Notes under the pieces: model-generated
Seen by the model: only the letters and a program-made list of their open reading frames with translations
What the model was told of the DNA's origin: nothing
The model's database searches: none
Assembly: GCF_009834535.1 (NCBI RefSeq)
Contig: NC_045696.1
Span: forward strand, 72,108,001-72,172,000
DNA length: 64,000 bases
Direction of reading: 5' to 3'
From: Camelus ferus
Lineage: Eukaryota
In this document: positions 1-62,300 of the stretch, piece by piece
How positions within the stretch are numbered: the first letter of the stretch is position 1
How the letters are laid out: each line of letters begins with the position of its first letter
Position numbers and translations under genes: made by a program

Positions 1-375
1 CACTTTCATTCAACATAGTAGTGGAAGTCCTAAGCAGAACAATTAGGCAAGGAAAAGAAATAACAGGCATCCAAACTGGAAAGAAGTATAATTGTAGACG
101 GTATGGTATTATATATAGAAAACCCTGAAGACCCCACCAAAAAGTATTAAAACTAATGAGCAAGTTCAGTAAAGTTGCAGGATACAAAATCGATATACAG
201 AAATCTGTGGTGTTTCTACATACTAACAACAAACTATCAGAAAGGGAAACTAAGAAAACAATCCCATTTACAATGGAACCAGAAAGAATAAAATACCTAG
301 GAATAAATTTAACCAAGGCAGTGAAAGACCTGTATACTAAAAACTGTAAGACATTGAAGAAAGAAACGGAAGAAA

Positions 376-1121
376 CCATCATCAGAAAGTCTACAAATAA
401 TAAATGCTGGAGAGGGTATGAAGAAAAGGGAACTCTCCTCTATACTGTTGGTGGGCATATAAATTTGGGCAGCCACTATGGAGAACAGTATGAAGGTTCT
501 TTAAAAAACTAACAATAGAGTTACCATATGATTCAAAAATCACACTCTTGGCCATATATCCAGAGGAAATTGTAATTTGAAATGATACATGCACCCCAAT
601 GTTTACAGCAGCACTATGTACAATAGCCAAGATATGGAAACAACCTAAATGTGCACTGACAGATGAGTGGATCAAGAAGATGTGTGTGTACGTACACACA
701 CACACACACACACACTGAAATATTACTAAGCCATAAAAGGGAATGAAATGCCACTTGCAGCAACATGGATGGACCTAGAGATGAAGTGAAGTAAGTCAGA
801 TGGAGAAAGACAAATACCATATGATATCACTTGTATGTGGAATCTAAAAAAAGTGATACAAAAAAACTTACTTACAAAATAGAAACAGACTCACATAGAA
901 AACAAACATGATTACCAAAGGGGAAGGGATAAATTAGGAGTTTAGCATTAACAGATAAACAAGGACCTACTGTATTGCACAGGGAACTACATTCAGTATC
1001 TTATAATAAACTATAATGGAAAAGATTCTGAAAAAGAACATCTTTATCTATATCTATATCTGAATCTCTCTGCTGTATACCAGAAACTAACATATAAACC
1101 AACTATACTTCAATAAAAAAA
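376..1121 (+). mobile_element. 5'-truncated L1 3' end nested in an older L1
   Basis: ORF2 C-terminal sequence (NNKCWRG; atagccaagatatggaaacaacctaaatgt), 3' UTR, ending tacttcaataaaaaaa. Confidence 0.85.
693..715 (+). repeat. (CA)n microsatellite
   Basis: Direct reading; lies inside the L1 3' region. Confidence 0.9.
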
Positions 1122-2999
1122 TTACCATGTGAAATTTTAAAAAATTATTTTGTCATTCTAGAAGAAAGACCTTAAGATCAATAAATAGTACTCTCATGGA
1201 GGCAGATTTGAACTCATTGCAGTGTGAAGCTCTCTGGAATTAAAGTTATCCAACAATAATCCAACCCCCTTCCCCCCAAAAAAAGATACTGAAGAAGACA
1301 CAAATAAATGGAAAGACAATCTATGCTCATGGATTAGAAGAATTAATATTATTAAAACGTCCATACTACCCAAAGCAAATTATAGATTCAATGCAATTCT
1401 CTTCAAAATTCCAATAGCATTTTTCACAGAAAAAGAACAAACAATCCTTTAATTTGTATGGAACCACAAAAGATTCTGAATAGCCAAAGCCATCCTTAGA
1501 AGAAAGAACAAAGCTGTAGGCTTCAGGCTTCCTCACTTCCAACAACATTGCAAAGCTCTAATAGAATAGTATGATATTGGTGTAAAAATACACACAGATC
1601 AATGGAACGGAATAAAGGACCTAGAAATAAACCCACACATATATGGTCAATTAACTTACAATAAAGAGCCAAAAACCTACAATAGGGAAAGGACAGTCTC
1701 TTAATAGTTGGTGTTGGGAGAAACAGACCACTATCTTAGAATCATACATAAAAATTAACTCAAAATGGATTAAAGATTTACATTTAAGTCCTGAAACCAC
1801 CAAAGTCCTAGGAAAAAAATTATGTGGTAAACTCCTTAACATCAGTCTTGGTATTGATTTTTTGGAACTGACACCAAAAGCAAAAAAGTGGGACTACACC
1901 AAACTAAAAAGCTTCTGTGACCAAAGGAAGCCATCAACAAAACGAAACGGCAATCTACAGAATGGGAGAAAATATTTGCAAATCATATATCCAACAAAAA
2001 GTCGAAGCAAGAAAATAAACTATACAATTAAAAAATGAGTAGAGGTTCTGAACAGACATTTTCCCAAAGAAGACATACAGACAGACAACAGGTATATGAA
2101 AAGGTGCTCAACATCACTAATCATCAGGGAAATGCTAGTCAAAACCACAATGTTACCTCACACCTGTTAATGAGAATGGCTATTATCAAAAAGGCAGTAA
2201 GTATTGGTTGACGATGTGGAGAAAAAGGAACACTTGTACATTGTTGGCAGGAAAGTAAATTGGTGTAGCTGTGGAAAGCAATACAGAAGTTCAACCTATG
2301 ATCCAGCAATTCTACTTCTGAGTATTTATCCAAAGAAAATAAAAAAAATTAACTTGAAAAGATATGTGCAAAGCCATGTTCACTGAAGCACCTATGTCCA
2401 CTTACAGTATCTAACATATGGAAACAACCTAAGTTTCCAATGATGGATAGATGGTAAAGAAAATGTACATACATACATACATAAAGGAATATTCAGCCAT
2501 AAAAAATAAGGAAAACTCTGCTATTTGGGACAACATGGATGGACCTTGAGGGTATTATGCTGAGTGAAATAAGTGACATAGAAAGATAAATAACCACATG
2601 AGCCAATTTATATGTGGAATCTAAAACAAAAACAAAAAAACTAAGCGCATGAATTAGAGAACAGCTTGGCAGTTGCTAGAGGCAGGAGCTTAGGGGTGGG
2701 TGAAATAAATGAAGGGGGTTAAAAGGTACAAACTTCTATTTACAGAATAAATCAGTTGTGGGGATGTAATGTACAGTATGGTGACTATAGTTAATACTGT
2801 TTTGCAACTTTGAAAGCTCCTCAGAGAACAGATATTAAAAGTTCTCATAACAAGAAAAAAATTTCTAACTATGTTTGGTGATGGATGTTAACTAGGCTTA
2901 TTAACCATTTCACAATACATACAAATATATCAAATTATGTTATAAATATGAAACTAATGGTATCTGACAATTATATCTTAAGAAAAGTGTGTGGAAAAA

Positions 3000-5900
3000 T
3001 AATCTAGAAAGGAGAAATTATTTACATATGCAGATGAGTCTTATGAACTAAACTGAAATATGGACAAGCTACTAGTAACATATAAAATGTATAGGCATAA
3101 CTTGAGTAAACTAATGAACTATAAAATATATATTAGAAATATTAAAAAAAAAAAAAGACAGCTCCTCTCAAAAAAAACCTCGGGTCCAAATGTTTTTATT
3201 CTACCAAACTTTCAAAATAGTTTAATTCTATTTTATGCAAGTTGTTCCAGAAACCAGAAAACTGGTGGGGGGGGGGGGAGTAGGCTGCGGGAGCAGGGGG
3301 ACTGGGAGGCTTTCCCAGCTCATTCATTGAAATTACTATAATACTGACTCAAAAACAAGGGGAAAAAACAATAAAAAGAGAAATTATAAGCCCATTTATG
3401 TACATAGATGCAAAATCCTAAATAAAGCAATAGTTAAGTGAATCCAACACAGCACTAAAAATAATATATCATGAACAAGCAAGATTTGTGCCAATAATGC
3501 GAGGATTGTTCAATATCAGAAAAATCCATCAATATATTTCTCCATGTTAATAAAATAATGAAAAACATTTTATGATAATTTTAATTGAACCAGAAAAATC
3601 ACTTTGCAAAGTTCAACACCTGTCTATAATTAACTGTTAGTAAACCAGGAATAGAAGGGAATATTCTCAGTAAGGGAAAAGCTATGATGTATACTCAAAC
3701 CCTACAGCATATATTACACTAAATGGGTAAATGTTAGATGAATTCCTTTTAAGAAACGAAATTAGGATATCCTTATTACCAAAAATGTTTAACACAGTAT
3801 TGGAAACCCTAAGGAAAAAGAAGTGAAGGGAATGGAAGGGGGAAAAAATTATATCCTCCAAATATTTAGAAATCAAAACACCTCTAAATAATTCAGGGAT
3901 CAAAGAAGAATCATAAAGGAAAAAAGAAAACATTCTGATATGAGTAACAGTGTAAAGATACAATCTGTGGAATGCATCTGAAGCAATGCCTAGAGGGAAA
4001 TTGTACAGTTTTACTGTCTTTATTAAAAAGAAGTGTTTAGAATCAATTATCGAAACTTCAAAAAAGCCATAAAAGAGCAAATTAAAACCAAAATAGAAAG
4101 AAGGAATAATAAAGATGAGACATAGGGTAATAAAAACAAATGGATAAAATTAACACTGCCAGAAGTTGGTTCTTGGAAAAAAATTAATAAACTTGATTAA
4201 ACCTATAGCAAGACTGGTCAGATTAAAAAGTCAAGAAAAAAGCTACTAATATAAAAAAGGAAAGCAGAAACATTACTACAGATCCCACAGTCAGTATAAG
4301 GATAATTCAAAGAATATTCTGAACAATTTTATGTCAAAAATAGTGGCAATTACCTGAAATGGACAAATTCCTTAGAAGATAAAACTTACCAAATATGACA
4401 AAAGAAGAAATAGAAAATGTGAATAATCCTGTATCTGTTTCAGAGAGTGAATTTGTGATATACAATATTCACCCTTCAACACACAAAAAACCCCAAAAAG
4501 CAAACAAAAAAACCCCTCCAACTCTAGGCCCAGGTAACTTCAATGGTGAATTCTTCAAAAATATTAAAAGAAATAATATCAGCTATCTCATAAACTCTTC
4601 CAAAAAAGAGGGAAAGGACCACTTCCCAAATTGTTTTATGAGGCCAGCATAACCCTAATACCAAATCTGACAAAGATGTTATACGAAAATGAAATTACTG
4701 ATCTATATACTTCATAAGCACAGATACAAAAGCCCCTAACACAATATTAGTATATCAAACAGCAATATATAAAAGGTAACACATCATAACCAAGTGAAAT
4801 TTATTTCAAGGATACGAAGTTGGTTTAACATCTGAAAATCAACCATAGTATGTCACCATGTTAGCAAACTAAAACATAAAAAACTATATGGTCATCTTGA
4901 GTAATGGAGAAAAAGCATTTTCAAAATTCAACACATATGTTTCTCACCATGTCTGTTTAACATTGTACAGGAAGTTCTAGACAGTGCAATAAAATTGTAA
5001 CTAGAGATTAAAGGCACAGATATTGAAAAAATTGAAACAATTCTCAGATGATGTAACTGTGTGCATCATAATCAAAAAGGTTCCACAGAAAAGAAAAAAA
5101 AAAAAAATTTTACTAGACCAGTAAAATGAATTTAGCAAGGTTAAGTTACAAAGTCAAAAGCACAAAAATTGCAGTTATATATGATGCTAATAATTGGAAA
5201 ATAAAAGACAATTCTAGTTACCACAGCACCAAAAACCTTAAAAATTTTAGGAGTTAACGGTCTGCCAGATGTCTACACTGTACAAAACATTCCTGAGAAA
5301 ATAAAGACCTAAAATAAATGGACAGATATACTATGTCCACAGACTAGAAGAGTCTAATAGTTAAATGTCAGTGATTTCCAGATTGCTCAATTCAGAGCAA
5401 TCCAAATCAAAATCAGATCAGGATTAAAAAAATATATAAATTAATCAATTTATTCCAAAATTTATATGGAAATACAAAGTCCTAGGATAGCTAAAACAAT
5501 CGACATCAGAATTGTAGGACTTAGATACCTGATCTCAAAGCTAGACATAAAGCTATAGTAATCAAGACAGTGTGCTACAGGTATAATGATAAGTGAACAG
5601 AGTCCAGAAATAGACCACATTTATATAGCTGGTTAATTTTAAAGGGACACCAAATGAATTAAATGGAGATAGAGGACATTTTCAACAAATGAAGCTAAGC
5701 CAAACAGATACTCTTATCGGAGTTAGGAGGAAGGAAGATCCTCAATCCTTGCCTCATACCATACACAGAAATGAATTTGAGATGGATCATGAACTTAAAC
5801 TTAAGAGCTAAGACTGGAGAGCTTTCACAATGTTCTCCTAGGGCAGTCTACCCAGGCAATAGAAGTGAAAACAAAAATAAATAAATGGGACTTAATTAAA

Positions 5901-8030
5901 CTTATAAGGTTTTGCACAGCAAAGGAAACCGCAAGCAAAACAAAATGACAACCTACAGAATGGGAGAAAATATTTGCTAATGATGTGACTGACAAAGGTT
6001 TAATTTCCAGAATATATAAATAGCTCATACAGCTTAATAACACAAAACCAAACAATCCAATCTAAAAATGAGCAGAAGACCTAACTAAACAAGCAATTCT
6101 CCAATGAAGACATACAAATGGGCAACAGGCACATGAAAAAATGCTCAGTATCACTAATTATTAGAGAAATGCAAATCAAAACTATACTGAGTTATATCAC
6201 CTCACATCAGTCAGAATGGTCATCATTCAAAAGTTCACAAACGATAAATGCTGGAGAGGGTGTGGAGAAAAGGGAACCCTCCTACATTGTTGATGGGAAT
6301 GTAGTTTGCTGCAGTTGTTATGGAAAACAGTATGGAGATTCATCAAAAACTAAAACAGACTTACCATATGATCCAGTAATCCCACTCCTGGGCATATATC
6401 CAGAGGGAACCTTAATTCAAAAAGATACATGCACCCCAATGTTCACAGCAGCACTGGTTACAATAGCCAAGACATGGAAACAACCTAAATGTCCATAGAC
6501 AGATGACTGGATAAAGAAATTGTGATATATTAATACAATAGAATATTACTCAGCCATAAAAAGAATAAAATAATGTCATTTGCAGCAACATGGATGGATT
6601 TGGAGATTGTCATTCTAAATAAAGTAAGCCAGAAAGAGAAGAAAAAAATATCATTATCACTTACATGTGGAATCTAAAAAAAAAAGACAAATCAATATAT
6701 ACAAAACAGAAAGAGACTCACAGACATAGAAAACAAACATGGTTACTAGGGGAGAAGGGGGTGGGAAAGGATAAACTGGGAGTTCGAGATTTGCAGATAC
6801 TAACTCATATATATAAAATAGATAAACAACAAGTTCATACTGTACAGCACAGGGAACAATATTCAGTATCTTGTAACTTATGGTGAAAAAAATTAAAATG
6901 AATATATGTATGTTCATGTATGACGGAAGCATTATGCTGTACATCAGAAATTGACACAACATTGTAAACTGACTATACTTCAACAAAGTGTAAGACTAGA
7001 GTGCTTTCAGAAGAAAACATGGGAAATATCTTCACGAACTTGGGGCTGACAAAATATTCAAATGACACAAAAAGCATACAACTGGAAAGGAAACAAAAAA
7101 AACCCCAGACTTCATCAAAACGAAACACTTCTGCTCCCCAAAGTCACCATTAAAAAAATATACAGGCAGGCCAGACTGGGGGAAAATCCTAGCAGTATAT
7201 ATATCCAACAAAGAACTTACATCCTTATGAAGAGGATTCCAACCATTCTGTAATGAGACAAGTAGCCTAATGAAAAAAATGGCCAGACACCCGAACAGAC
7301 ATTTCAGGAAAAAAAAAAGATAAATTGCCAGTAAGCATATGAAAAGGAGTTAAACATCATTAGTCATGCAAATTAAAATCATGAGATAAAATAGAACAAC
7401 TGGAACTCTCATTATTCCAAACACATAAATACACATAAAATGGCATATACAGTCACTTTGGAAAACTTTTTGGCAGTTTCTCATAAAATTAAATGTAAAC
7501 CTATTTGATGACTCAGCAATTTCACTAGTTATTTAGTAAGAGAAATGAAAACATGCCAATAATGTTCATAATAACTATACTTATAATCACCTCAAATTGT
7601 AAATTGTGCAAATGTGTCCATAAATCAAAGAAAGGATAACTGTGGGATGTTCCTGAAAAGGAACACTACTGAGTAGCAAAAAAAATCCCAAACTATTGAT
7701 ATATGCAACAACACGGAGGAATCGCATAGATGCTGTGAACCACGTCAGATGCAAAAGTAAACATGTAAAATTTCATTTATATGAATTTCAGGAACAGGTA
7801 AAACTAATCTATGACAATAGAAAACAGCAAAAATGGTTGCCAAGGTCAGGAGGAGAGAGAAATATATTTCCTGGAAAGAGGCACAAAGGAACTTCCTGGG
7901 ATGATGAAAAGGTTTTCTATCTGGTTTGGAGTTAGGATTACACAGATGTATACATTTGTTAAAAGTGGCAGAATGTAGTCCTAAAATTGATGCACTTCAC
8001 TATCTACACATTTTACTTGAATACAAACAA
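3000..8030 (+). mobile_element. Old fragmented L1M elements (ORF2 remnants and 3' end)
   Basis: Decayed ORF2 motifs (GPGNFNGEF, FPNCF, gatgcaaaatcctaaataaa) and old L1 3'-end-like sequence at 7500-8030. Confidence 0.8.
5828..6990 (+). mobile_element. Younger 5'-truncated L1 with 19-bp TSD
   Basis: ORF 6118-6498 is the L1 ORF2 C-terminus ([14 protein letters not shown]...[11 protein letters not shown]...WKQPKCP); TSD taagactggagagctttca (5809-5827) / taagactagagtgctttca (6991-7009). Confidence 0.92.
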
Positions 8031-12442: not shown

Positions 12443-12524
12443 TTAACAAGTAGATGAGTCCATTGTGGAGAGAGTCAAGATGCTCCTGTCGTTGGTATAG
12501 AAAGGATCCGGTGCACTCCATGAT
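12443..12524 (-). CDS. ATP11B: ATP11B last exon, coding part (82 nt incl. TAA)
   Basis: [29 protein letters not shown] acceptor with T-rich tract. Confidence 0.94.
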
Positions 12525-15500: not shown

Positions 15501-17270
15501 TATCATTTTAAAAACATAAAGCCAACCAAGTATTAAAAATTTTTTTTATCAATAGATAAGAGAATAGTGTCTCCTCTACCCTTTATTCCTCTGGAGTCTT
15601 TCTTTCCAACATTTTCCAAGCGATGGAACATGTAGAAAATGATACTATTTACATGGCACACTGTGGACAATCGAAATCACCATCTATCCTTGCTCATCTG
15701 TAACCCTTCATGCACACCAGAGCCCTGCTGCTCTGATTTGTGGACTTTAATATCATCACCTAACGTACACCGAAGTATGAAAAAAGTTACTTCTATTCCT
15801 TAATATTTCCTAAATAATAATGTCTCTTGGATAACCACATAAAGAACTGAATCAATTTCATTTTTAAATACAGTTTAAGTAGTATTTACCAAAAGATGGT
15901 ATTTTTTTGTTATAATCCACAAAAGCAAATCTAGTTCAAGAAACACATTTGGGAGGGGATAGAAATGTTAAGATTCTTCTAAACCATAATTTAAAGAGCC
16001 TGTTCTAACTTACAAACTTTTAATTAGACCACAAATGCCAAGTAAAAACTTAAAAATCATAACTCATTTTAAAACATCATTACATAGATAAAAAGATATA
16101 GGAGAGCAGAAATGCAGCCTTATATGTTTATAAATACCTCAAAGTCTCAAATGACTGAGTAGTAAATACGCACGAAGAATAAGAAAAGCAAAAATCTTCT
16201 GATTTTACTATTATGTGTAGATTATTTTATAAATACAAAAAAGCAAAAAAATGCAGGAAATAAAACAACAGTATAGGTATAATCAAAAAAAGAAAGTTAT
16301 AAATACCAACCAAGAGTACCATATACACACTCCTATATTCACATTTGAGAAAGACTGTAAAGCAAAATTTTTGTTCATTAGATGAAACGTCTCTTCAAAG
16401 GTGCTTTTTCTTCCTCTGTTAGTGAAAGAACCCTCTACCCTAAAGCCACACAGTGAAATACCATCAAAGAGTGCTAATAAATGGCACACTTTCTGCTTCA
16501 GCTGATAAAACCAGCTGCTGATTTATTAGGTATCTAGAGATGCAGGTTCATCCTGTTGCAGTTTACAGGATACTCAACTGCAGCAAAGGCTACTTAGAGA
16601 AATTTCACACCTGCTGACATGGGTTGGACTACATCTTCCGATTACTCGTTCCAGCATTCTTCCAATAGACGCGCACGCTGTTTCTCCTTCTGAGAAACAG
16701 CACATGGAGTCCAAGCACTTGATACTTGAATTTGTTTCAGTAAGCTGGAGGAGTTGAAGCAGAAAAATATTATTTATAGGTTTGGAATTCCAGAAAGCAT
16801 TAAAAAAATTACAACAAGCACTTTAAAAATCAAAAGTAATGTATATAAATACATGTTTTCTACAATATGGAAGGCTTTAATTAAGAATAATCATACAAAA
16901 ATATTTAAAAGACACTGTGTCCAAAATTAGAGGCTGACTGAAATAATTATATGAAAACAAATAGCTGAGTATTATATAAATCTGCAAAGATTTTGGATTT
17001 TAATATCTTAATAATATATTATGGTCAAAATGATTTACATCAATCACTTAGAACTTAATAAATTCTATTTTTTCTTTAAGCTTTTGTTTAGGTTAAATGC
17101 TCCTGCAATTTCAATTAAAAATACCTAGCAATTGAGAAAAGTAGATTGTAAGTTATTTTGAAGACTAGAAATAACCAGGCAGGACCACCTATCTCTAATC
17201 TTCAACAATAACAACAACAATAGTAGCAAACACCTTATGTAGTGTTTACCATATGCCAGGTTTTAAATAC

Positions 17271-23300: not shown

Positions 23301-26300
23301 TTTCAAACTATTGCATCTGTTCCATTGTCTGATTTATAGCAGAGTTAAGGGATTTATAATCTTCAAGTAGTTTTGTTTTAAAGTTTCACCATTTATGAGG
23401 GTTTACCCCAGATGAAACAGCAACACCTTCTTGACCAGTAATTATAATACACAAAATGGCAAATAGTCCAAGTAAAAATATAACTATTAGTGGTAAGAAT
23501 TTTTATCCTCCATAATCACTACCAATTAAAATATTTTGTATATCCCAACTAGGTCTAGAAATGGTTGTTAGGGTTTAATTCTCAAGAGGGGAGTGAATCA
23601 AGTCCTTATCAATTCATACTTTCTCATTACAAAGATGTAACTGTGAAAGTTTATGAAAAATAAGAACTGAGAGTTCAGTGAATTATCAGTCAACAGGGAA
23701 TTATTCAGTAACAGGTCCAAGCACCCCTACATTTGACCATTCAATTCAAGAGGTAGACTTAGATAAGTAATTCACTGTCTAACTATATTAACATATATAA
23801 AATGATATAAAACTATCAAGTAGGAAAACTGATTTCAGAAATAATAAATAGCACAACATATTTTGAAAAGTGAAAAAGAATAATTTCTTGAATGTAGGGC
23901 CACAGGTTTTGAGAATACCTTACTAGGTTAGAACCTGAGGTGATGTAAGATTTAACACTCTAACTCCAAAGGAAGACTAATGAAATATTCAGGTATGGAC
24001 ATATAAAAAAGTGTAAAGATCACAAAAAGGGAAAACAGGTAAACAAAAACAACATGTGAGAAACAGTGAAGGAATTAGTAAAGTAAAAATGGCAATGTCA
24101 GGCCAGTTCTCCCATAGCATGCCCCAAGTTTGAGAACTTAGCGGATATGTCCCCAGGAAGGTCCAGCGCAGTACTACCTAGTGCACGCAAGAACTGTCCT
24201 GCTGGCTGCAAGCCTCAGCTAGCAGGTGCCTACTGTCCTCCCCTCTGTGCTTGCTTTCAGCAAATTCATATGCTGAGCTGACTGAACCCTTATCTTCTTC
24301 CATCTGGAAGGACAGAAAAGCAGTAAGTCTCATATTACAGAACAATACTCTCACTGTATATAAGTTAACAATCAAAACAGCAAGTTGGGGTCCACAATCT
24401 ATAAGGCACAACTGAATGTTCACACAACACCACATTCATTTACTGTCACAAAAGAGAGCTAATAGTAGCTTCTCAAGGAGCGCACAAAATAAAAGCCATG
24501 ATTTTCCAGTGTACAACGTTATGTTAAAACCAGGTTTGTGTTAATAAAACTCAGTGTCTTCTATTAAACAAATTCCTTGTCACCAAGAATTAGGGTTTTT
24601 AGCATAAAGGTGTATCTCATTTCGCTTTTCTCATGCTCCCTTCTCAGAAGGCTTCTCTACTGAAACTGGTCTTCGGCAGAGTAGAAGGGTCAATCACATA
24701 GCCTCACAAATGTTAGACATATAGGTAAGGAGGGGGCTTTACTTGCCTAATTAAACAAATTATTCTAATCCTTAATTTGAAATATATATTTTTAATGAGT
24801 ATTAACTAATTTATACAAATTTCTATTCTTTGCTTTTTCTATATCTGTAAGTATTAGAGACCTTCTGAGGAGTATGTGCCCACAGCTGAAGTAATTTTAA
24901 CCTTTCTTAAATTATTTAAAAAAAAAAAAAAGTCCTCAATAAACAGAAAGTAATTCCCCCCCCCATTTCTATGCATTTTCTCAGCTGCAGGACTGATCAA
25001 TAATTATTTCTATAAATAAATGCTATGATAAATTTCTTACATACATGAAAAATAAAGCAGAAAATTTCTTGGTTTCAAGAGTACAATAAATTTACATAAA
25101 GATAACTTATTATTATAGTTTTGCCTATAACAAAGGAGTATAAAATACTCAAAGTGAGTTTTCTTTTATTTAAAACTGTTATTAGTACTGTGTTAAGGGT
25201 TCTTAAGAAGTGCTAACCTGATTAACAATTTGTAAGTTCTTGAAGATATATGACATATGCACAGTTTTCCTCTCTGTCACAGCACTAAACAAGCTACTGT
25301 GGATCACACCAAGGAATACTGTTCAATGTAGTTCAAAAACAAGATGTACTCCAAATTCATAGGATGCATCAGCAGATGGATGTTTGTGGGCACTCGTTCT
25401 TCACGCAGCTATGAACAAATGCCCACCCAGTGGTCACTAACTGCTCACTTAGGCACTGTTATTTCTGCCTGGCCTTTGGTTGAGCATAGTATTTCTTCTT
25501 TCTGTTTCTCTCTGATGCTGACAGTAAGTAAACAGACCCCAGTGTGTAAAATGATCATCTGACAGGTGAAGAACCTGGAGGTTCAAAGACGTGAACTAAT
25601 TTGGCTAGGACATACAGGCAGCAGTGCCAAGGACAGCACTACATTCATGCCCATGCCCACTGTCTCCACAACAGGGCTCTTCTCCCTTTGTTACACCACC
25701 TGACTGGGGAGTGACTTGCAGTGAAGATTATGTTACTAATGTATCCTGCTCTCATTGTGCTCTTTCACAGGTGAATACTATGAAATATTTACTCACTACT
25801 TAATTACATTATTACAGAATGTGAGATCTCCTTAATTTATGAACTCCTTGCCTGATTCTTTTTTAGTCTATTACTGCTCAAAAAATGTGCTTGATTTAAG
25901 CCACTATATGTGGAATTACGATATAATAAAAAAAATTGAGTTTATTCATAATGCAAGTAATCTTCACTTCACAAAAGTGCTAGCCAGAGTGTTCTTTTAA
26001 ATAATGAGCTCTCCTATTGCCTTAAATAATTAGATGTTTGAAAATGTGATACCCATTGTTTTCAGAAAGGCACATACAGATAAAATGTGATATACATATT
26101 TGGCTCAACAAAAGGTGAAGGCAAATGTTCCAGGTTTGTATTGATTTTAGATCTTGCTTTAAACATAAAATATAGTTGACTACCTCTCAAACACCTATTT
26201 GTATATTCATCTACAATTATTATACCTTTGTAATTCAAAGCACTTCAAAAATCCCAATGTTAATAGGAATAATAAAATTAAAAGGTTTGGTAAAACTTTA

Positions 26301-29300
26301 GAAAAGCTCAAAATTATGAACTCATAGGGTTACATAAGAGGTTATTTAAGCAGTGCTTGTCAAAGCCATTCATTTGATCAAGTGAACACAGGCAGATTAG
26401 AAACTCTGAGAATAAAAAAGAACTTAAAAAATATATATGATTAAGAATCCACAAGATACTGATAGGGTGAGAAGTTGAAGGGTGCCAAAACTAAAAAAAA
26501 AAAAAAAAAAGTTGTAATACTTTTTCTCTTCAAACCAGACTGGAGTTAAAGTTAATATATAGTTTCGGTATTTTAATATGAAAAGTTCTAGGATTTAAAC
26601 TTTCATTCTCTCCCATCAAAAGACATCTCTAGACTACTGGTTATTTTTTGTGGAAAGAGAATGGATCTGTATGTGGAGATAAAGCTATATACAAGAAATA
26701 CAAAATATTTGTTCAATTTATAGATGCACTAAACAGTGCAGGGTATGAAATGTTCCGGCAGTCATTATAGTGTACAAAGACAAATATGCACATGTATTTA
26801 CAACACAGATTAAGGCAAGATAAAAGAAATGGGCAACTCTCACTTCCAAGTAACTGAAACTTAAAACTTTAAATTTTATGGTGAATTTTGTAGCTTAAAT
26901 TACTCAACATGCAGGAGCATTCTTAAATATGAATAATATGACAAGCAGAAGCATAAGAATTGTGCTAGGAAAGGTAGTTAAGATGTAAAATATATAACAA
27001 GGTACAGATCTCTGTCCTGTTATGCTGAATTTTCATCTGAATTTTATTCTCAAAGAAGAAATGGATTTTTTTAACATATATATTGATAGAGATCAAATTA
27101 GAGACAGAGCTATGCTAACAAAAATGCACCACTCTTAATCCATGCCTCTGCCCATCTTTTGAATATTTTTTAATTGACTTTCAGCATGCAGAAGAGTTAA
27201 CGAGGTTCTACTCCTCCTACTCTACCTAAGTTTGCTCAGCTGATTCCTTGCCCTCGACAATGGCTGCAGTGCGATGAACTCATCACTTAAAGCGACTGTG
27301 TTGGAGTACATCTATAAGTGGACAGAAAAGGGATGGGACATACAAGTCAGTGAGCTGTATTCATCACTTAAGAGACAGACACAGGACAAGCTTTGTAAAG
27401 ACATTTATTCCTACAAGAGTAGGAAATATACATGATATACATACATGACTGACGTTAGTAGGGCTGTTGGCTTTGCCATCAAAAGAATTTACTCTTAATA
27501 CGACACTGTTATTCTGGAGAAAAACAAAGCTCAAAACAAATGCTGACCTGACAACTCTTCTTTTAATAGGATTTTTCTTGCTACTTTTGGTAAAAAATGA
27601 AGTAAACAGCTGACAACTTTCTAACAATTTTGTCATTTGAAATCAGAGGTGGCAGTCCAAGGCTGAAATAGTAAAGATTAGTGACTAAAGTAAAGGAATA
27701 ATGTCACACATGGGATTTGAATGACCATACACTGTTTCAACAAAAACAAAACCAAAATCAAAAACCCCTAGCAGGCTAGAAGATCCCTGAGTGGAAGTGA
27801 GATTTCCTCTTTAGATTAGACCACAGTAGAACATCCAGTAAAGTAATTTAAAAGGAATTTAGTGGGGCAGAAAGGGAGCTTATGCTGGCTTTCACACACA
27901 GAAAAATGATTGATTTTTAATCAATTCCATTTTTTATCAACTTAACCAATGGTAAAAGAACCATAATATATATAAAGTACTTTTAACTTTTTCTTATCTA
28001 AGGGACCACCTTAAGGTATCCAATATTTCCTGTGTAATCCTTTAAAAGAGGCTATAAAAGCAGTAATAAGAACTAATATCACTTTTTCATTACCATTAAG
28101 AAATCTCTATGAAAATACTTAAGTTTGCAAATGCTCTGCCTAAAGAAGACTTTCTAAGGAAATGCAAACAAATCTGATTATTTACTTTTATAAAGAATTA
28201 AGCTTTTAAAGTGATGTCATTAATATATTTTGGTGAAATATAACTTTACATAGCCAAAAGGGCGAGACAAATATGTTCTCCATAATGGTCTAGAAGAAGT
28301 ATAATAGACGATGTATTAAAAATGGCATTCTCTTACCATAAATATTTATCTCTGAAGATAAGAAAAAAGATAGGCAAATCTTTCTGATATATATTTAAGT
28401 AATATATTGCAGAGTGGAAAAGCTTGTCTATAGGCAGACAGAGTAATCAAGATCATGCAAATTTTTTCAACCCCATGTGGAGATCAGTATCACAGAACAA
28501 CATGCTCATCGCCCTTAAAATTATGTTCTTACTGAGAACTTAGTACACACGACCCACGATGAGTTTTTATATTCATTATTTCTAACAATCAGGTAAGGCA
28601 GTAATTATTATTCTGATTTTACAGAAGTGGAAATTGAGGTTTAGGGAAGTGACTTAACCAAGGACATACATTTTATAAATGGTTAAAACAGTATTTGAAT
28701 TAAGTCTGTCAGGCTTCAGAGGCCTATGCTGTTCCTACGGTGTTAAAATGTATACTGACTAGGACTGAGTTATCAAAGCAAATAAATGTTAAAGAAATGT
28801 TGATATGATCAACTGAAATTAAAACCAATACACCATTTAGAAAGCCTAACTCAAATTACTAAATACCTGGGGAGCATTTATTCTATTTGTAGCATAAACA
28901 TGCAACTAAACTTCCAAAATTTAAACAAAATTTGCTTGATGTGTAGCAAACATGCAAAAATAAAATAAAACAAAAAAACACAATCCAGGCAGAACCAAAT
29001 GATTAATAAACTCTGTTTATAAAGGCTGAAATAAAAGTTGATTAGAATATATTTTTGAGGATATATATTCAATGCTATGGCACTGTTAATAGGACAAATT
29101 AAGATAGATTTCTAGTTTATGTACAAGTCAAATATACAAAAAAGACATTCAACGAAACAGCTACCATTTCTTGAGCATCTACTCTGTCTGAATATTATTT
29201 CATTCAATACTCATTACAAAGGTAATGAAGTAGACATTTTTGTCAAAATTTTACTCATGAGGAAATGGAGACTTAAAGTCACAGAGCTATCCAGTAGTAG

Positions 29301-32300
29301 AAGTGAATTTTAACTGACAACTACCAGGCCCTAAAGATCATATTCCTAAACACTACATAACATACTGATAATACCTATTATACATTAATATTTATTAGTA
29401 AGTGTTTAGTGAGAGAATATTTTAAAAATCCATTCTGTAAAAATTAATTAGGTTAAAAAACTTATTTCATACTTTTGTTGAAAATAACATAACCTGAAGA
29501 AGTATTACTCAAATTCTAATATTTCTTTTTGTATGTTTGTTGTTTTTTTAAGGGTAGGGGAAATACTTAATATAGGAATAATTTCCTATCTTCTGATATA
29601 AGCAAATTATAATGACAGCTATTCATCATTAAAGACTCCTAGTTAAAAAGCTATTGTATATAAAAAGGTTACCTGTGCCTTTTCAATATTTGTAGGATGG
29701 ACCTGTTGGTCAAATACTTTCTTCATAATATCAAGAAATAGACATGTAACAACCATGAGAATTATGGCAAACCAAGCTGAACCACTTGACAGGAGCTGAA
29801 TAAATACAAAGTACATATTCTGGGACCCCAAAAATGGCCTGCAAAGAAAGAAAATGGGCTTAATAAAAGTAGAAACTGAAGACAGATTCTTAAGTCAAGA
29901 TATCAAGTAAATCCAGTATATCTGAAGGTTACAATTTTAAAAATACACCATGAAAATGTACAAAATTTGGAATCACTGAAATTTAATTAATCAACTAACA
30001 AAACAAGACAAGATTTAATTGTTAAAAAATAAAATCCAATTTAATTAGTTTCAATGAAAACTGTAATTTTCACAATTAGGAAAAGGCAAGTAGTTGACTA
30101 GATCATTCTTAGTGGTACAATATCAAAAGAATTATGTAAAATACAGACTTGAGAGACGAAAATAAAAGCAATAAAAAGTATGTAACAAAATATTTTCTAC
30201 TAGGCAACTACAAGCTTGATTACCCAAATTTTAGGCTGAAAAGGTCTTAGAAGTTCTTCTCTACAAATATGTTTTAAAATAAATGCACTCACGAAAAATA
30301 TTAGTTCTATATACAAGTAGGTATTGTCAGGATACTCTTTTTGGGGTTTTATACATATCACTTCAAAAGAATATAGGGAAATATATAAAGAAATGATGAG
30401 GATTAAAAACAAACATTACAAATGCTATGCATAAGAGTATCCTTATATGATCCTAAATGAAAGTTATTAATGTTTAGCCAACCCAAGTTTTTGCCTACCT
30501 TTAAGTTTTTGCCTTATACAGGGATCACAGGCACAGCATGTAAATGTAATATAAATTCTTCAACTGAGAGACTTTAGCTGCCCATCACGTACCAATGACT
30601 CTTAGAAGAGGTATTAATTTTTAATCTATCAGAGTAGCTGAATATCTGATTTTTACCAATGAAGATGCAGCATACTATTTACTTAAATTGAGAGAGGAGT
30701 TAATGCATTCATGAAAATTTAATGGTTCTGTGCAACTTATTTTATTACATACATTAATAATAATTTAAAGGTAATATTGGTAGTGTAAAGAACACTACTG
30801 AGTAAATCCCAGCTTTGCTTACTTTTCAACCTTTGTGATCTTGGGATTCAGTTTCCAAATAGAAAAAATGGGGTAATAAGATTATGATGATGAATCAATG
30901 TCATATCTTAGGTAAAACACCTAGAATGTAGTAAGTATTAAGTAATTGTTAGTTTCTTTTTCCCTACATATCAGTAAGATCAACTGAAAGAACTATATTT
31001 CTTATCACAATAGGGTCTCAAAATTATTCTAAGCAGAATTTGTTCATAATTTATCACAATAAATATTTGTTAGAGTTGAATCAATATAATTAAAATATAA
31101 TTTAGCCACTCACCAGAGAATCCCTCCATAAAACAAAGAAAATACAAAATAGAATAAAATAGATCCCCAGGTAACAAGATGATTGATCCAGGTCCAAAAA
31201 TGAGTTTCCAAAGCCATCTAAAACAATAAATTGAAAAATCCTGAATATAAATTAATACATCTTTAACTTCTCAGATAAAACTCAAGAATAAAATGTATTA
31301 ATTATAAGTGACTAAGGTTCCTATGGCGAAGTCCCTCAGAAGGTAAACATTAATGAAAGGATCCTAGAATGGAATTGAACAATTTCAAGTTTAGGTTAAT
31401 TTTCTTCTGTGAGGAAGCAGCATTAAAATTTCATCAGTACTTTATTCTCAACTCCATGGCCTAACTCCAATTTGTGTTGTCTTACATTATATATAGAGAA
31501 GCAGAATTTCAGAGATGAGTATTGTTGGGTTAACCTTTATTTGACCATAAAAATCAGCTAAGGCTTCTTTCCAAAATACTGAATTTTAAAAAGGATTTTT
31601 TGACAGAAACTAAAATGAATTATTAAAATAGCGATTATTCATGACTGAAAAAGGAAAAGGGAAAACTATCTGTGGCTAAAAAAATCAAGAAAATTAACAA
31701 TTACACAGATACAAAATGATCCCATGCTTCTAATTTCCATACCGTACCTTTACTGTGACTGTAATAACCATGACTGTGAAGACCAAGGTGCCAAATGTCC
31801 AGTTTCCAAACATCTAAAACAAAGAATAAACCATTATTGTATTATGTGTTAACATGATGCTAAATTAGATGTGAGGCAAAAAGTCACTTTATTTTCACTA
31901 AAAATGACTTGCATCATTTACACCAGTCACATTTGAAATCTGTGACTGCAAAGTTAAAGGATTATGAGAAGAAATACCATAAAGCATTATTATGTAAAAT
32001 GATTCTTTGGATAATATTATCAGATTAGAAACCCAAAGATAGGTTTGGAATTGTGTGGCAAACATGGTTTTTAGTTAGAATGTTAAAATTGTTAGTAACT
32101 GCTTTATTCCTGTCACACAGTAAAAATGATAAACAAAACCCTGATCATTCATAATTATTTTCTGAAACCATTTCTAATCAGAAATCACATAGTAACTTAT
32201 GGTTAAAAAGAATATGAAAACGAATATATGTATGTTCCTATATGACTGAAGTATTGTGCTGTACACCAGAAATTGACACAACATTGCAAACTGACTATAC

Positions 32301-56300: not shown

Positions 56301-59300
56301 GAGAGAAGAACTTGAAAGATCAGAGTAGGTCTAAAACAATACATACACAAGTATTTCTCGCAAATTATATTATTCTTATTTTGTACTAACCAGATTTTTA
56401 AAGAGATCGCTTCAAAATATGACTTAATGCAAGTTTAACAACAAAATTAATGACACATTTCAAATTCACATATAAAATACCTTAATGTGTTATGAATTTT
56501 GTCTGATAATTTAAAATTATTTTCTAGATTTTTCACATTTTTTATTTAAAAGTATTTTTCTGAAGATTTAAAAGTTAGACTCAAACTACCTTGCAGCAGC
56601 TTCCACTAGAGCTTTTTCATCTGGTGAAGATGCATAGTATTCCAACTGGGAAGGTGCAAGGTTGGATTGCCAGGGACCATCGCCAATGCCATCAGTCTGA
56701 ACATTGCTAATCTGCACAGTGTGACAGAGACTGACTGCTTTAAAGAAGAGGTCATGTTCTTTAATCTGTAGAAACATAATTAATACTCGTAATAAAAATA
56801 CCAATACCAAATAACATTTAAGAAACCAAAAACAAAATTCTAAAAAAGTCAATAAATACAGTTAATAATTTGGTAAACTAAGATGTAGAATAAGACTGCT
56901 ACAATCTTAAATTGCATAAATAATAGCTGGCTGCACCTCAGAAGATGACATATTACTTCTAAAGAGTAAAATGTCACATTTGCTTATGACCCTTCAAAGT
57001 GAGTATTTTTTTAGGAGGCATAACCAAATTGCCAGTAAAGATGGAAACTCTTTTATGGAAGAATTGAGATCTCAAAAGGTATTAAATAAATTTAAGCTCT
57101 ATTCCTTAGTAAAATCTTCTTTACTTCAAGGCAGAAAGGGCTTTCCTTAATCCCATGAAAAAACCCAGAGAACTAAAGTAGATACATACGAAGTGATAAC
57201 TACAAATTCTCAGTGCTGAATCAAAGGATAAATATTTCAAATGTATATTCCTTGCCTACTAACACTTAAACTTTTTCTTCTACAAATCACCAACTACCAA
57301 AGAGTTACTATTTCAAAGGAAACTCCTATTTATTAATTTAAAAATTACTTACTAGTTCAGTTTCATTTTCAGGACTGGTTCTAAAAGAGGAGCTAGTTGC
57401 AAGATGGGATAAGTTGTTAAGACGAGAAAAACTACTAAGATAAGGTAAGTTTCCTTCTGAAGAGTCTGGTGTTGGTCCTTCAGATACAAGTCTACCATTG
57501 ATTTCTTGGTATTTTACACCATTAATTGAACATTCTCGAAACTGCATCTCATTTTCTGTCAATGTACCAGTTTTATCTGTAAACACGTACTCCACCTAGA
57601 GATACAAAACAAAAGAAAACAAACCTTTGTATTCAGGGTCTTATGTTAAACAAAAAAACTTCGTCCTCTGTCTCCTGAAGTCCTTTACCTATTAACATTG
57701 ATACAGTGATGCTGAGTCTTATAAAACAAGCACAATCAAATAATTATAGATGCCATGGAAACAAACAGGGTGACAAAATATTCTAAATCTATATACACTT
57801 TGAAGTTTGTGGAATCTTTAAGTTCACGTTCATCTACAGAGTTGACTGATATTGTGGCATTAGTACTTCTTTTCTACCCTCTGGATAAGGCATTTTTAAA
57901 TAGTAGGACTAAGAATGAACTTTGAACAAGGGTGGAAGGGATGCTTAATAAGCTAAAATATGAAATAATTAATTTTAATTATTCTTCGAGGCTAATTTTA
58001 GGAAAATAACCCTAAAATAAGATAGGTCCTCAAAGAGAAAGATAAAATAGTCAAATCTTCATGTAACTAGGATTATAGTAAGGATTTGATTATTGCAATA
58101 ATGATCTGAGAAAGAAGTCATTTACAAAGGGAAGCAGATATCATAAGGGGAAAAAAAAACCCCACAGTCAGTATCTTTTATGAAAATACAAACAGAACAA
58201 ATCCAAAAAGATATAAAAAGGATTACACATCATGACATGTGGGATTTAACCCTGGAATACAAGATTAGTTAAATACAAAAATCAAATCAATGAAACCCAC
58301 CATTATAACAGAACAATACTTGTCCTTTATTCTATTAATAAAATGATCATCTCCATAGATGCAGAAAAAGCATATGGCAAAATTCAATACCCTTTCATGT
58401 AAAAGCACTCAACAAATTAGGGACAGGAGGGTACTCAATCTGATAAAATGTATCTATAAAAAACCTATAGCAAGGATCATACCTTAATGCAGAAAAACTG
58501 AATGCTTTCCCCTTAAGTTCAAGAATAAGACAAAAATGTCCGCTCTTGTCACTTTTATTTAACATTCTACTGAATATTCTAGCCAAGGTAGTTAGGCAAG
58601 AAAAAAGAAATAAAAGGTATTCACATTGGGAAAAAGATAAAAACTAATCTATTTCCTTTTTTATAGCAAATTTGAATGAATACATCAAAAAACTAATAGA
58701 ACTAATAAATGAGTTCAGCAAGATTGCAAAAACAAAAGATCAATATACAAAAAGGGAGGTAAAGTTAATGTTGGGAAAAAAACCCTCACACGGTCAGCAG
58801 CTATCATCAAAAAGAATACAAATAACAAACACTGGCAAAGATGTGGAGAAAAGACAGCCCTCGTACACTGCTCATGGGGATGTGAACTGGTGCAGCCACT
58901 ATGGAAAACAGTGGAGTTTTCTCAAAAAACTAAAAATAGAACTACCATATGACCCAGCAATTCCACTCCTGGGTATATATACAAAAAACAAACAAACAAA
59001 AAACCCTAAAAAAACTGATTTGCAAGGACACATGCTAATGTTCATAGTAGCATTATTTACAATTACTACGATATGACAGCAACCTAAGTGTCCATCAACA
59101 GATGCATGGATAAAGAAGATATGGTGTATACACACAGTGGAATACCACTAAGCCATTAAGAGAATGAAATTTTGCCATCTGCAGCAACATCAATGAACTT
59201 GGAGGGCATTATGTTAAGCAAAATAAATCAGACTGAGGAAAACAAATACTGTATAGTATCACTTATATGCGGGATCTAAAAAACACAACAAACTAGTAAA

Positions 59301-62300
59301 TATAACAAAAAAGAAGTAGACTCAGATACAGAGAACAAACTGGTGGTTGTGAATGAGGGGTCATATAGGAGTAGGGGATTAATAAGTGCAAATTATTAGG
59401 TATAAAATAAGCTATAAGGATATATTGTACAACACGGAGAATATAGCCAATATTTTATAATAACTATAAATGGAGTATAACCTTTGAAAACTGAATCACT
59501 ATATTGTACATATGTAAGTTATATAATATTGCACATAACCATACTTCAATAATAAGAAAGATTAAATGGTAGTGATGAGTATATAAATTAACTTTTATTT
59601 GAAAATACATAAAATCAAGAAGTTAAATCTTTTAACTTTGGTGAAAGAGGTCACTGGATACCTTTATAAGAGAGTTTCTTGGATAGTAAGGAAATGAAAG
59701 GACATAGAAGAGTGTGAAATAAAGTAGATTTCATTAACATAAAAACAGAAAAGTTACAGTAGCACAAACAAAAACACACCTGTAGGCTTAAAAGTAAAGA
59801 AACTGATGAATTAGAAACTGAAGACCATTATCATTTATAGTTTCTTAAAGAGAATGCAGATATGAATATCTGAGCATACAGTGTGTGGTTCCAGAAAAAC
59901 GATAATCTATCATCATAAAGGAATGAGGAGGAGGAAATAGGGATAGAAAAAGTCAAAGAAAAAAATAGGGAAAAAATGTGTTCCTGAGAAGCAGTAAAAA
60001 CAGGCTGTTTTTAGATCTTAAATATGTAATACATAATTCAAAAAATGTGACATGAATTAATATTTAGTGTTAAGTTATTAAAGCCTCCTAAATGCTATTA
60101 AAAATAAATGGATCAACTTCTGGTTAAAAATGGCAGGCTGAACAAATGCAATTAATTATCTCTGTTCCTCTTCAAACTTCACCAAAATAAGAGTAAAAGA
60201 ATAAAAAAAAGAACAGAAACAATGACAGAAGAGACAACATGAAAAGGGGAATTTTTCAAGTTTGGAAAAGAGATGAATCAATGGTAAGTGACTTAGCAGA
60301 ACTTAGAACATGAAACCTAAGCAATGGGGGAAACCCTATTCCCAGAAACTCTCAGAAAGTAGATGTACTATCACTGAATGTGGGAGTAAAGGATGAGACA
60401 GAAAATGGAGGTATCAAGAGCAGTTTGAATCCTGAAATCCCTTTATAACTTTGCAAATTTGATACTGACCCCCTTCTATCAGAGCAATAGCTGACAGGGT
60501 TTATTCTCTAAGGAGGCTGAACCAGAGAGAATCTGGACCCTGTGGAAAGCTGAAAATGGGTGAGCAGTGCACTAAAAACAGGTTTCTACTGGACAGCTCC
60601 AACAATCACAAGCAGAAGAAATACCAACCGCAGTTATTCTCTCTGGGGAAACTGAAGAAAGATCAATTATCGATATTGGGAACACCCCAAAAAACAGCTG
60701 GGCTGCCAGGCTTTTCTAGAGGAAACTTTTAGAATTGTAAAGAAAACCAAACATTAGTATTCATTTGAGGATATCCACTTACATAAAAAGGTAGAGTCTA
60801 AAACAAATTATAGGAAATTCTGCTAAAACACTGTCTTAAAAGGACAAGAATTTATTACAATAAGATTGATACATAAGGACACAATTTGAGCTTAATATGA
60901 GCACAGTTTGGTTATGTACAATTTCATCTATGAGAAATGGTAGGTGAATGGAGAAAACTGCACCTAGAATACATGAAATGTACAAACAGCTAGCAGCTAC
61001 CACAGGTCACCATATATAAGCCGCACCCATCCACATATGATACAACTTTCCTTCTGTTTTCTGATAACCTTCCTTTCAATACTTCACAGTAATATATAAG
61101 TTGGAATATTTCAGATGGCCATTTCCACAAGTAAACGTCAGAGTTTTTCCAAAATAAACTGCCATATTTATTGCAGTATTTATCTATTTCTTAATAATTC
61201 AGCAAGCCCTGTTTTTATCAGGCTCCTATCTTTTTATTTTAAATGTGTTACTGACAAAGTTTTATTGTACACCTATCTCATTTTCCCATAATAAGCCCTG
61301 TGGTTTTTACTAAGCAATTTTGTATAGAACACTGATTTTTAGGGATGCGTGTCACATTACAGCAGAACTGACGTATTGAAAAAGGAACTCTGTACAAACA
61401 GAAAATGCAGGGAGCAGAAGACTTTAAAAAAAACTGTCATTAATATCCTCAGAGAGGTAAAAGAATAAAGTATATTCAGGAAACAAGAATAAGATGTAAT
61501 TAAGAGAAGGCTATTCAGATATACTAGAATTATTAGAAATTTAAAATATTACAATAGATATAAAAGAAATCAAAAGAAAGGGGGAAATACAAAGTTCACA
61601 AATTCTCCCAAAAAGCAGATTATAAAAACAAGGAAATGAAAATTGAAAGTCAAAAAGAATTAGAGAATCAAGATAAATGATCTGACATCCAAACTAATAA
61701 ATTTCTACAAAAAAAAACCCCACAAAACATAAAAAGACATGTTTATCAAATTAAGAAAAATTCCTAGAATTGAAGAATATGTGTTTCCAGACTAAAAGTG
61801 TTCAGTGTTCACTGCCCAATGAAAGAAAAAAAAAAGAAAGAAAACAAAAACAAAAAACTCACACCAAGGCATACTATCATAAAATTTCAGAACTATTGCA
61901 GAAAGAAAAGATTCTTAAACCCTAAATACTTTCAGAGATAAAACAACAAACTACATAGAGAACCTGGGAATCAGAATGGCACTAGACTTCTTAACAGAAA
62001 CACTAGAAGCTAGGGGGAAAAAAACAAAAATGGAGAAATGTTTTTGAATTTTTGAGGAAAAATAATTTCCAGCCTTGAACGTGTTACCCAGCTGAATTAT
62101 TAATCAAGTGTAAAAAGGGAATCAAGATATTTTCAGACTTTCAAAGCTCAAAATATTTTTCTTACGCACCCCCTTTCAGAAGTTATTAGAAGAAATAAGA
62201 GAGTAAGTCACAGGTGGGAAGACATAGAATCTAGAAGACAAGAAATCCAAAACAGGCGGTAGACAAAGGAACTGCCAAGGTGATGATAAAGGAAGTCTAG

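Follow-up and report, generated by a model that had tools for sequence, protein, structure and literature searches.

Evidence that an exon near the 3′ end of the lipid flippase gene ATP11B is read in two conserved frames

Alternative C-terminal tails have been described for ATP11C, another ATP11 flippase, with ATP11C-a using the motif SVRPLL for PKC-dependent endocytosis and the alternative tails setting ATP11C localisation; the available text of the review covering them names tail variants for ATP11C only (PMC11775268). The tail of ATP11B is reported to be sufficient for early/recycling endosome targeting, although its signal residues are unknown and the available text does not state the isoform (PMC7530900). 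A broader class of splice-derived dual-coding C-terminal regions has also been catalogued, in which a cassette whose length is not a multiple of three alters the frame of a later exon, both frames are kept and the C-termini differ (Tress preprint, 10.64898/2026.05.28.727796; PMC13247117; PMC13160074). The accessible part of the Tress preprint counts 537 such regions, including some in another P-type ATPase family, ATP2B1-4.

Cassette exons of ATP11B itself have appeared in splicing surveys (Clark 2007; exon 28B in Sam68/FXTAS; a mouse exon responsive to TDP-43), where they lie just after exon 28 and are regulated and tissue-biased. These surveys use them as splicing markers, and their available text does not discuss the reading frame or the protein tail. 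Predicted ATP11B isoforms in NCBI/UniRef share the exon order described below and a 62/63-aa tail (PNI54635.1, chimpanzee 'ATP11B isoform 10'; XP_077899839.1; XP_069474760.1), but these are automatic models with no function stated. The tail sequence is already in databases and the class of arrangement is known, while ATP11B appears to be a new member of that class: ATP11 is absent from the main text of the Tress preprint and from 8 supplements of PMC13160074, as far as these are accessible, and for ATP11B the accessible part of PMC13247117 lists only a 126-nt exon (exon C below). Because the arrangement is well known, with 105 transcript pairs in the preprint under selection in both frames, the gain is gene-specific.

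The window analysed here, a stretch of 64,000 nt from Camelus ferus, carries on its minus strand the 3′ part of ATP11B (lipid flippase, P4-ATPase IF). All named matches of the protein searches were ATPase IF or ATP11B, identifying the gene as an ATP11B orthologue. Its relevant features are as follows.

29673..29838, minus strand: exon U, the last transmembrane exon of ATP11B, ending ...EKAQ in phase 0; human 'exon 28' of Clark 2007.
27226..27311, minus strand: cassette exon B, 86 nt (2 mod 3), flanked by TAG and GTAGAG; encodes 28 residues, after which the next exon is read in the +1 frame.
27185..27190, minus strand: TGCATG, a candidate RBFOX-type element 36 nt downstream of the B donor; another lies at 26913.
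24178..24303, minus strand: cassette exon C, 126 nt; the matching human exon has the same length and place.
16611..16744, minus strand: exon P, 134 nt, flanked by CAG and GTGTGA; 44 codons in the canonical frame, 33 in the +1 frame.
16642..16644, minus strand: TAA that closes the +1 frame 31 nt upstream of the P donor; found at this codon or the following one in 23/24 species.
16522..16610, minus strand: read-through extension of P, past its weak donor to AATAAA (16527-16522); candidate terminal form of P.
12443..12524, minus strand: coding part of exon L, the last exon; the canonical tail ends DSSTC, and its TAA ends 82 nt into the exon.

Splicing of U-P-L yields a 71-aa tail with the end DSSTC, and U-B-P-L yields a 62-aa tail that ends LLEECWNE at the TAA (16644-16642). 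A preliminary description had proposed that inclusion of the 86-nt exon shifts P into a +1 frame open to the TAA at 16642-16644, with the stop 31 nt before the last junction, and these numbers hold. The different 62-aa tail without DSSTC also stands, but the accompanying statement that it lacks the Cys cluster requires refinement, as two Cys are retained (positions 43 and 59). P was further described as the penultimate exon, which applies to U-B-P-L but not always, given a candidate extended terminal form of P. This form and cassette exon C also shape the tail, and the original picture was to that extent incomplete.

Splice-derived dual coding was defined as a non-triplet splice event that places one exon in two frames over at least 60 nt; here the event is the 86-nt exon B, and 33 codons of P are recoded. 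In one genome, the open +1 frame is weak evidence, because when the canonical frame is recoded synonymously at random, the +1 frame still stays open for 33 codons in 6.5% of 20,000 trials. At only 5 positions of P could one synonymous change introduce an early +1 stop. The case for the predicted dual coding rests on the orthologues.

Published transcript data concern the same part of the gene. The primers of Clark 2007 (PMC1896007) map to U and P, the forward primer at 29760-29741 with 1 mismatch, and this human RT-PCR lists two cassette exons between them. From their order, we infer that Ex29 of that study is B and that its novel exon, reported as brain-enriched, is C. An ATP11B exon designated E039 is heart-enriched in GTEx, but it is given without coordinates, so which exon is meant is not stated in the available text (PMC5778607). 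Two reviews, in their accessible parts, list ATP11B among the Sam68 targets in FXTAS; one of them specifies exon 28B, with B and C not distinguished. In mouse, an Atp11b exon of 126 nt, identified with C solely from its length, falls by 0.44 and 0.28 on TDP-43 loss (PMC6440020). None of these transcript papers, in the text available, shows B joined directly to P. A literature search returned no paper matching four tail peptides and no description of the B-P tail of ATP11B, most subscription journals lying outside its coverage.

The orthologue survey combined protein searches, which gave 5/7, 22/36 and 74/80 candidates among the matches listed, with three cluster look-ups that added members, 15 being listed for each large cluster. 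The resulting 192 orthologue records (112 labels) comprise 27 B-P forms, 17 B-C forms, 1 garbled bird model and 147 forms without B. The B-P proteins are predicted models or assemblies; NCBI isoform models rest on transcript alignments. For Camelus, U followed by the canonical tail and U followed by the B-C tail are each identical to one of two records, and the Camelus records fetched are canonical and B-C, none of them B-P.

The +1 peptide of P is present in 24 tetrapod species (11 placental mammals, 1 marsupial, 4 squamates, 2 salamanders and 6 frogs). It is entered from B in 23 of them, corresponding to the 27 B-P records, and from a frame-shifted C in Pipistrellus. Sixteen species have a peptide of 33 residues, 7 have one of 34 and 1 has one of 60; across the 24, 13 of 33 positions are invariant. 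Early +1 stops in orthologues, which would have spoken against the proposal of dual coding, occur in 0/24 species, as judged from predicted proteins and annotated isoforms. None of the canonical exon P peptides (n = 87) forces one either. The exceptions to the usual stop position are all later, none earlier: one frog has lost the stop, as have a cluster of 9 records (195-199 residues) and one further record (69 residues). The Tress preprint, in its accessible part, tolerates one or two orthologue stop losses in dual-coding regions. Among the 10 species in which both frames could be compared, the stop falls one codon later in 4, via different canonical codons; in some mammals it has shifted by one codon instead of disappearing. 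The peptide of exon B is itself found in 34 species labels, is conserved to frogs and has 15 of 28 positions invariant.

The B-P tail is thus predicted in mammals, squamates, salamanders and frogs, and has been retained from frogs to mammals. No B-P form was seen among 36 bird or 6 turtle records, drawn from 15 listed members each of clusters of 1141 and 167. Exon B was not found in fish in the protein searches, and a search with a chimpanzee fragment showed no fish or paralog B-P tail among 12 of 98 matches. In one fish-like ATP11B, a Met-Thr pair makes a +1 stop unavoidable at the corresponding position. A whole codon has been deleted from exon P in several mammal lineages, with both frames kept. 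In a Hippopotamus record the B-P junction carries three additional residues, which could reflect an acceptor of P lying further upstream.

Because the wobble position of a canonical codon coincides with the second base of a +1 codon, the +1 peptides expose synonymous sites of the canonical frame. Each of the 12 reptiles and amphibians matches the window at 11-12 of 14 four-fold canonical wobble sites. A simulation that held the canonical protein constant gave a mean of 6.5 matches at a neutral distance of 1.0 (P(≥11) = 0.012) and a mean of 9.0 at 0.5 (P = 0.21); the neutral distance between mammals and amphibians exceeds 1. The stop-lost frog serves as an internal control, with four-fold matches at 11/14 sites before the stop versus 3/9 after it (P = 0.04); for all degenerate sites the figures are 21/31 versus 13/25 (P = 0.18).

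Substitutions were compared in both frames for 10 species, with bases inferred by minimal change, the Bos pair mixing two species, and differences counted against the window as a single reference, not on a tree. The base inference was checked once, and the published human primer reads EL-stop exactly as inferred for chimpanzee. The 42 distinct differences include 23 that are silent in the +1 frame versus 11 silent in the canonical frame, with about equal opportunity for these two one-frame-silent classes (57 versus 63), which is the opposite of an ordinary exon. By canonical codon position, 23 differences fall at position 1 (21 of them +1-silent), 5 at position 2 (2 +1-silent) and 14 at position 3 (11 canonical-silent). 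The excess of +1-silent over canonical-silent changes is seen in mammals (12 versus 5) and in non-mammals (16 versus 7), and changes that alter both frames are the rarest per opportunity. Canonical identity of the P region is 23-33 of 33.

If the canonical frame is assumed to be neutral, the +1-silent excess has P = 0.05-0.07 in mammals and 0.03-0.04 in non-mammals; with a canonical dN/dS of 0.5, P is at most 0.002 for both. A stricter test restricted to position 1 gives P = 0.001-0.14, depending on transition bias. Under lenient nulls, statistical support for selection on both frames is modest. Purifying selection on both frames is assessed here by substitution counts, not by formal dN/dS. 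Together with records from 23 species in which B leads into the +1 frame, a substitution pattern favouring that frame supports the original suggestion that P is dual-coding. The comparison strongly supports protein-level constraint on both predicted frames of P, with the +1 frame constrained at least as strongly as the canonical one.

The alternative that survives best treats the +1 frame as a by-product, with P conserved for splicing or RNA structure and B-P a minor transcript whose protein is unimportant. The region is short (33 codons), and both the few positions open to an early stop and the share of synonymous recodings that stay open are compatible with this account, as is the loss of the +1 stop in some lineages. 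The Tress preprint, in the part available, also warns of passive preservation for short overlapped frames. General nucleotide constraint, however, would not favour +1-silent changes, and of the 14 canonical amino-acid changes in mammals, 12 are silent in the +1 frame, where 27-39% would be expected; nor would it account for an exon B peptide that is itself conserved to frogs. We regard this alternative as unlikely.

Stops located less than 50-55 nt upstream of the last exon junction usually evade NMD. In B-P-L the stop lies 31 nt from that junction, within this distance, and where P is terminal in its extended form the B-P stop lies inside the last exon; by either route the B-P mRNA would escape NMD. 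The two exon-C stops lie 134 and 175 nt before the last junction when L is used, and such transcripts should decay; with P terminal, these stops lie 0 and 41 nt from the last junction. Escape of B-P fits the locus, since the human 126-nt exon between U and P is NMD-sensitive (delta-PSI 0.23) with a stop 137 nt from the last junction in U-C-P (PMC13247117). The accessible HCT116 UPF1 table of that study has one ATP11B row, which concerns exon C only.

An extension matching P read-through occurs in 11 records or labels (birds, turtles, lizard, newt and one further record), and the read-through matches the 72-aa annotated tail of birds, turtles, lizard and newt. Polyadenylation in the window may use the AATAAA at 16527-16522. 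A TGA truncates the camelid read-through after 56 aa; the old end is still present, as is the AATAAA.

Exon C is likewise read in two frames. Without B it encodes 41 aa in frame 0, with a TAG formed by the last 3 nt of the exon; after B it is read in the +1 frame, giving a 56-aa tail that ends GTC at the TAG 24221-24219. This B-C tail is conserved from frogs to mammals, its 17 of 192 records including a turtle and platypus. Frame 0 of C was considered as a functional tail and downgraded, given its NMD sensitivity in human cells and the drop in its conservation past the +1 stop (24/28 identical between birds and the window, then 4-7/12). Models of Pipistrellus and naked mole rat have C one base shorter, leading into the +1 frame of P. 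The canonical and B-C tails both end in Cys. The B-C tail (27250-27226 joined to 24303-24222) contains a basic stretch with Trp and Leu 13 residues apart; such a stretch with this spacing resembles 1-14 calmodulin-binding helices.

These properties of C bear on a second alternative, in which B serves mainly the B-C isoform, with its 56-aa tail in brain, and B-P is a side product of C skipping. The phylogenetic spread of B-C records is in line with it, as are the reported brain enrichment of the novel cassette (Clark 2007) and the fall in frame-0 identity past the +1 stop, which points to constraint on C in the B-C frame. Yet it leaves selection on the +1 frame of P unexplained, as B-C never translates that frame, and B-C-P-L, whose stop precedes the last junction by 175 nt, would be expected to decay except where P is terminal or left out. 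This makes it quite improbable. That B is a regulatory off-switch, with B-P degraded or its protein unstable or mistargeted so as to lower ATP11B output, is very improbable: exon C is already a poison exon at this locus and stops close to the last junction do not always evade decay (the accessible part of PMC13247117 labels as NMD-sensitive an ATP11C row whose stop is 6 nt from that junction), but decay would not need a stop kept within 31 nt and never earlier in 24 species, or a peptide conserved over its length.

We consider, with good confidence, that P is truly dual-coding and that B acts as a frame switch, with a B-P product that would escape NMD and be translated and whose tail swap may relocate the flippase. 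In this mechanism, inclusion of B replaces the 71-aa canonical tail with the 62-aa tail, the B-P mRNA would be stable and translated in tissues that include B, and the flippase core would remain intact, so that the swap would change the location or internalisation of ATP11B, as the tail variants of ATP11C do. The role of B is likely a tissue-regulated swap of the endosome-targeting tail. Changed location or cycling is the best guess because B-P removes the whole canonical tail, the carrier of the endosome-targeting signal; by analogy, the chance that the B-P tail alters where ATP11B works or how it is internalised is close to even, on the lower side.

The likeness to ATP11C-a and ATP11C-b extends beyond the presence of alternative C-tails on an ATP11 flippase. 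The B-P junction creates S-x-x-S-L-L in 21 of 24 species (SKLSLL in the window), resembling the SVRPLL of ATP11C-a. The Ser four residues before Leu-Leu is conserved in 21 of 24, with Asn in both salamanders and Thr in the species entering from C. In a phospho-dileucine tail of the ATP11C-a type, PKC phosphorylation would drive uptake by a clathrin-dependent route. The ATP11C motifs, in contrast, were proven by mutation; the ATP11B junction motif is a pattern match only, exon homology is not assumed, and the dileucine likeness may be taken as only a lead. An LLxY motif is absent from the B-P tail. AlphaFold2 with a 22-sequence B-P alignment gave a mean pLDDT of 31 and was uninformative on the tail. 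An autoinhibitory G[F/Y]AFS-type motif was sought in exon B, and the match was only loose.

A more ambitious reading, which we put forward tentatively, is that the 3′ end of ATP11B forms a combinatorial frame switch whose age is at least that of tetrapods. Here inclusion of B would make a conserved coding tail of C, otherwise a poison exon, and a second conserved tail of P, which otherwise supplies the endosome-targeting one; intronic polyadenylation after P would render all stops NMD-proof (0 or 41 nt from the last junction, or in the last exon); the +1 frame of P would be the more constrained; and the B-P junction would build a regulated dileucine signal like that of ATP11C-a. If such a signal is formed, this phosphatidylserine flippase would be placed differently in heart and brain than elsewhere.

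Second and third tails conserved across tetrapods suggest that tissues may run differently placed ATP11B. Exons at this locus are mis-spliced on Sam68 or TDP-43 loss, and the tail switch therefore offers a testable protein-level consequence. Variants in exon P classed as 'synonymous' would act as missense changes for the second isoform.

B and P are each 2 mod 3 in length, and U-B-L would therefore regain the canonical DSSTC end, with a 55-aa tail; no record among the 192 has this form. The TGCATG near B is not significant alone, because nine such hexamers occur in the 17.1-kb span. A 69-nt candidate exon just upstream of B (27513-27445, minus strand), with AG/GT ends, was rejected for now, its peptide occurring in 0/299 proteins. 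The same stretch holds TACTAAC (27459; QKI- or branch-point-like) and may be a regulatory element for B. Elsewhere in the window, positions 1-8000 and 58001-62000 show a strong A-over-T skew on the plus strand (0.22-0.29), as is typical of L1 insertions.
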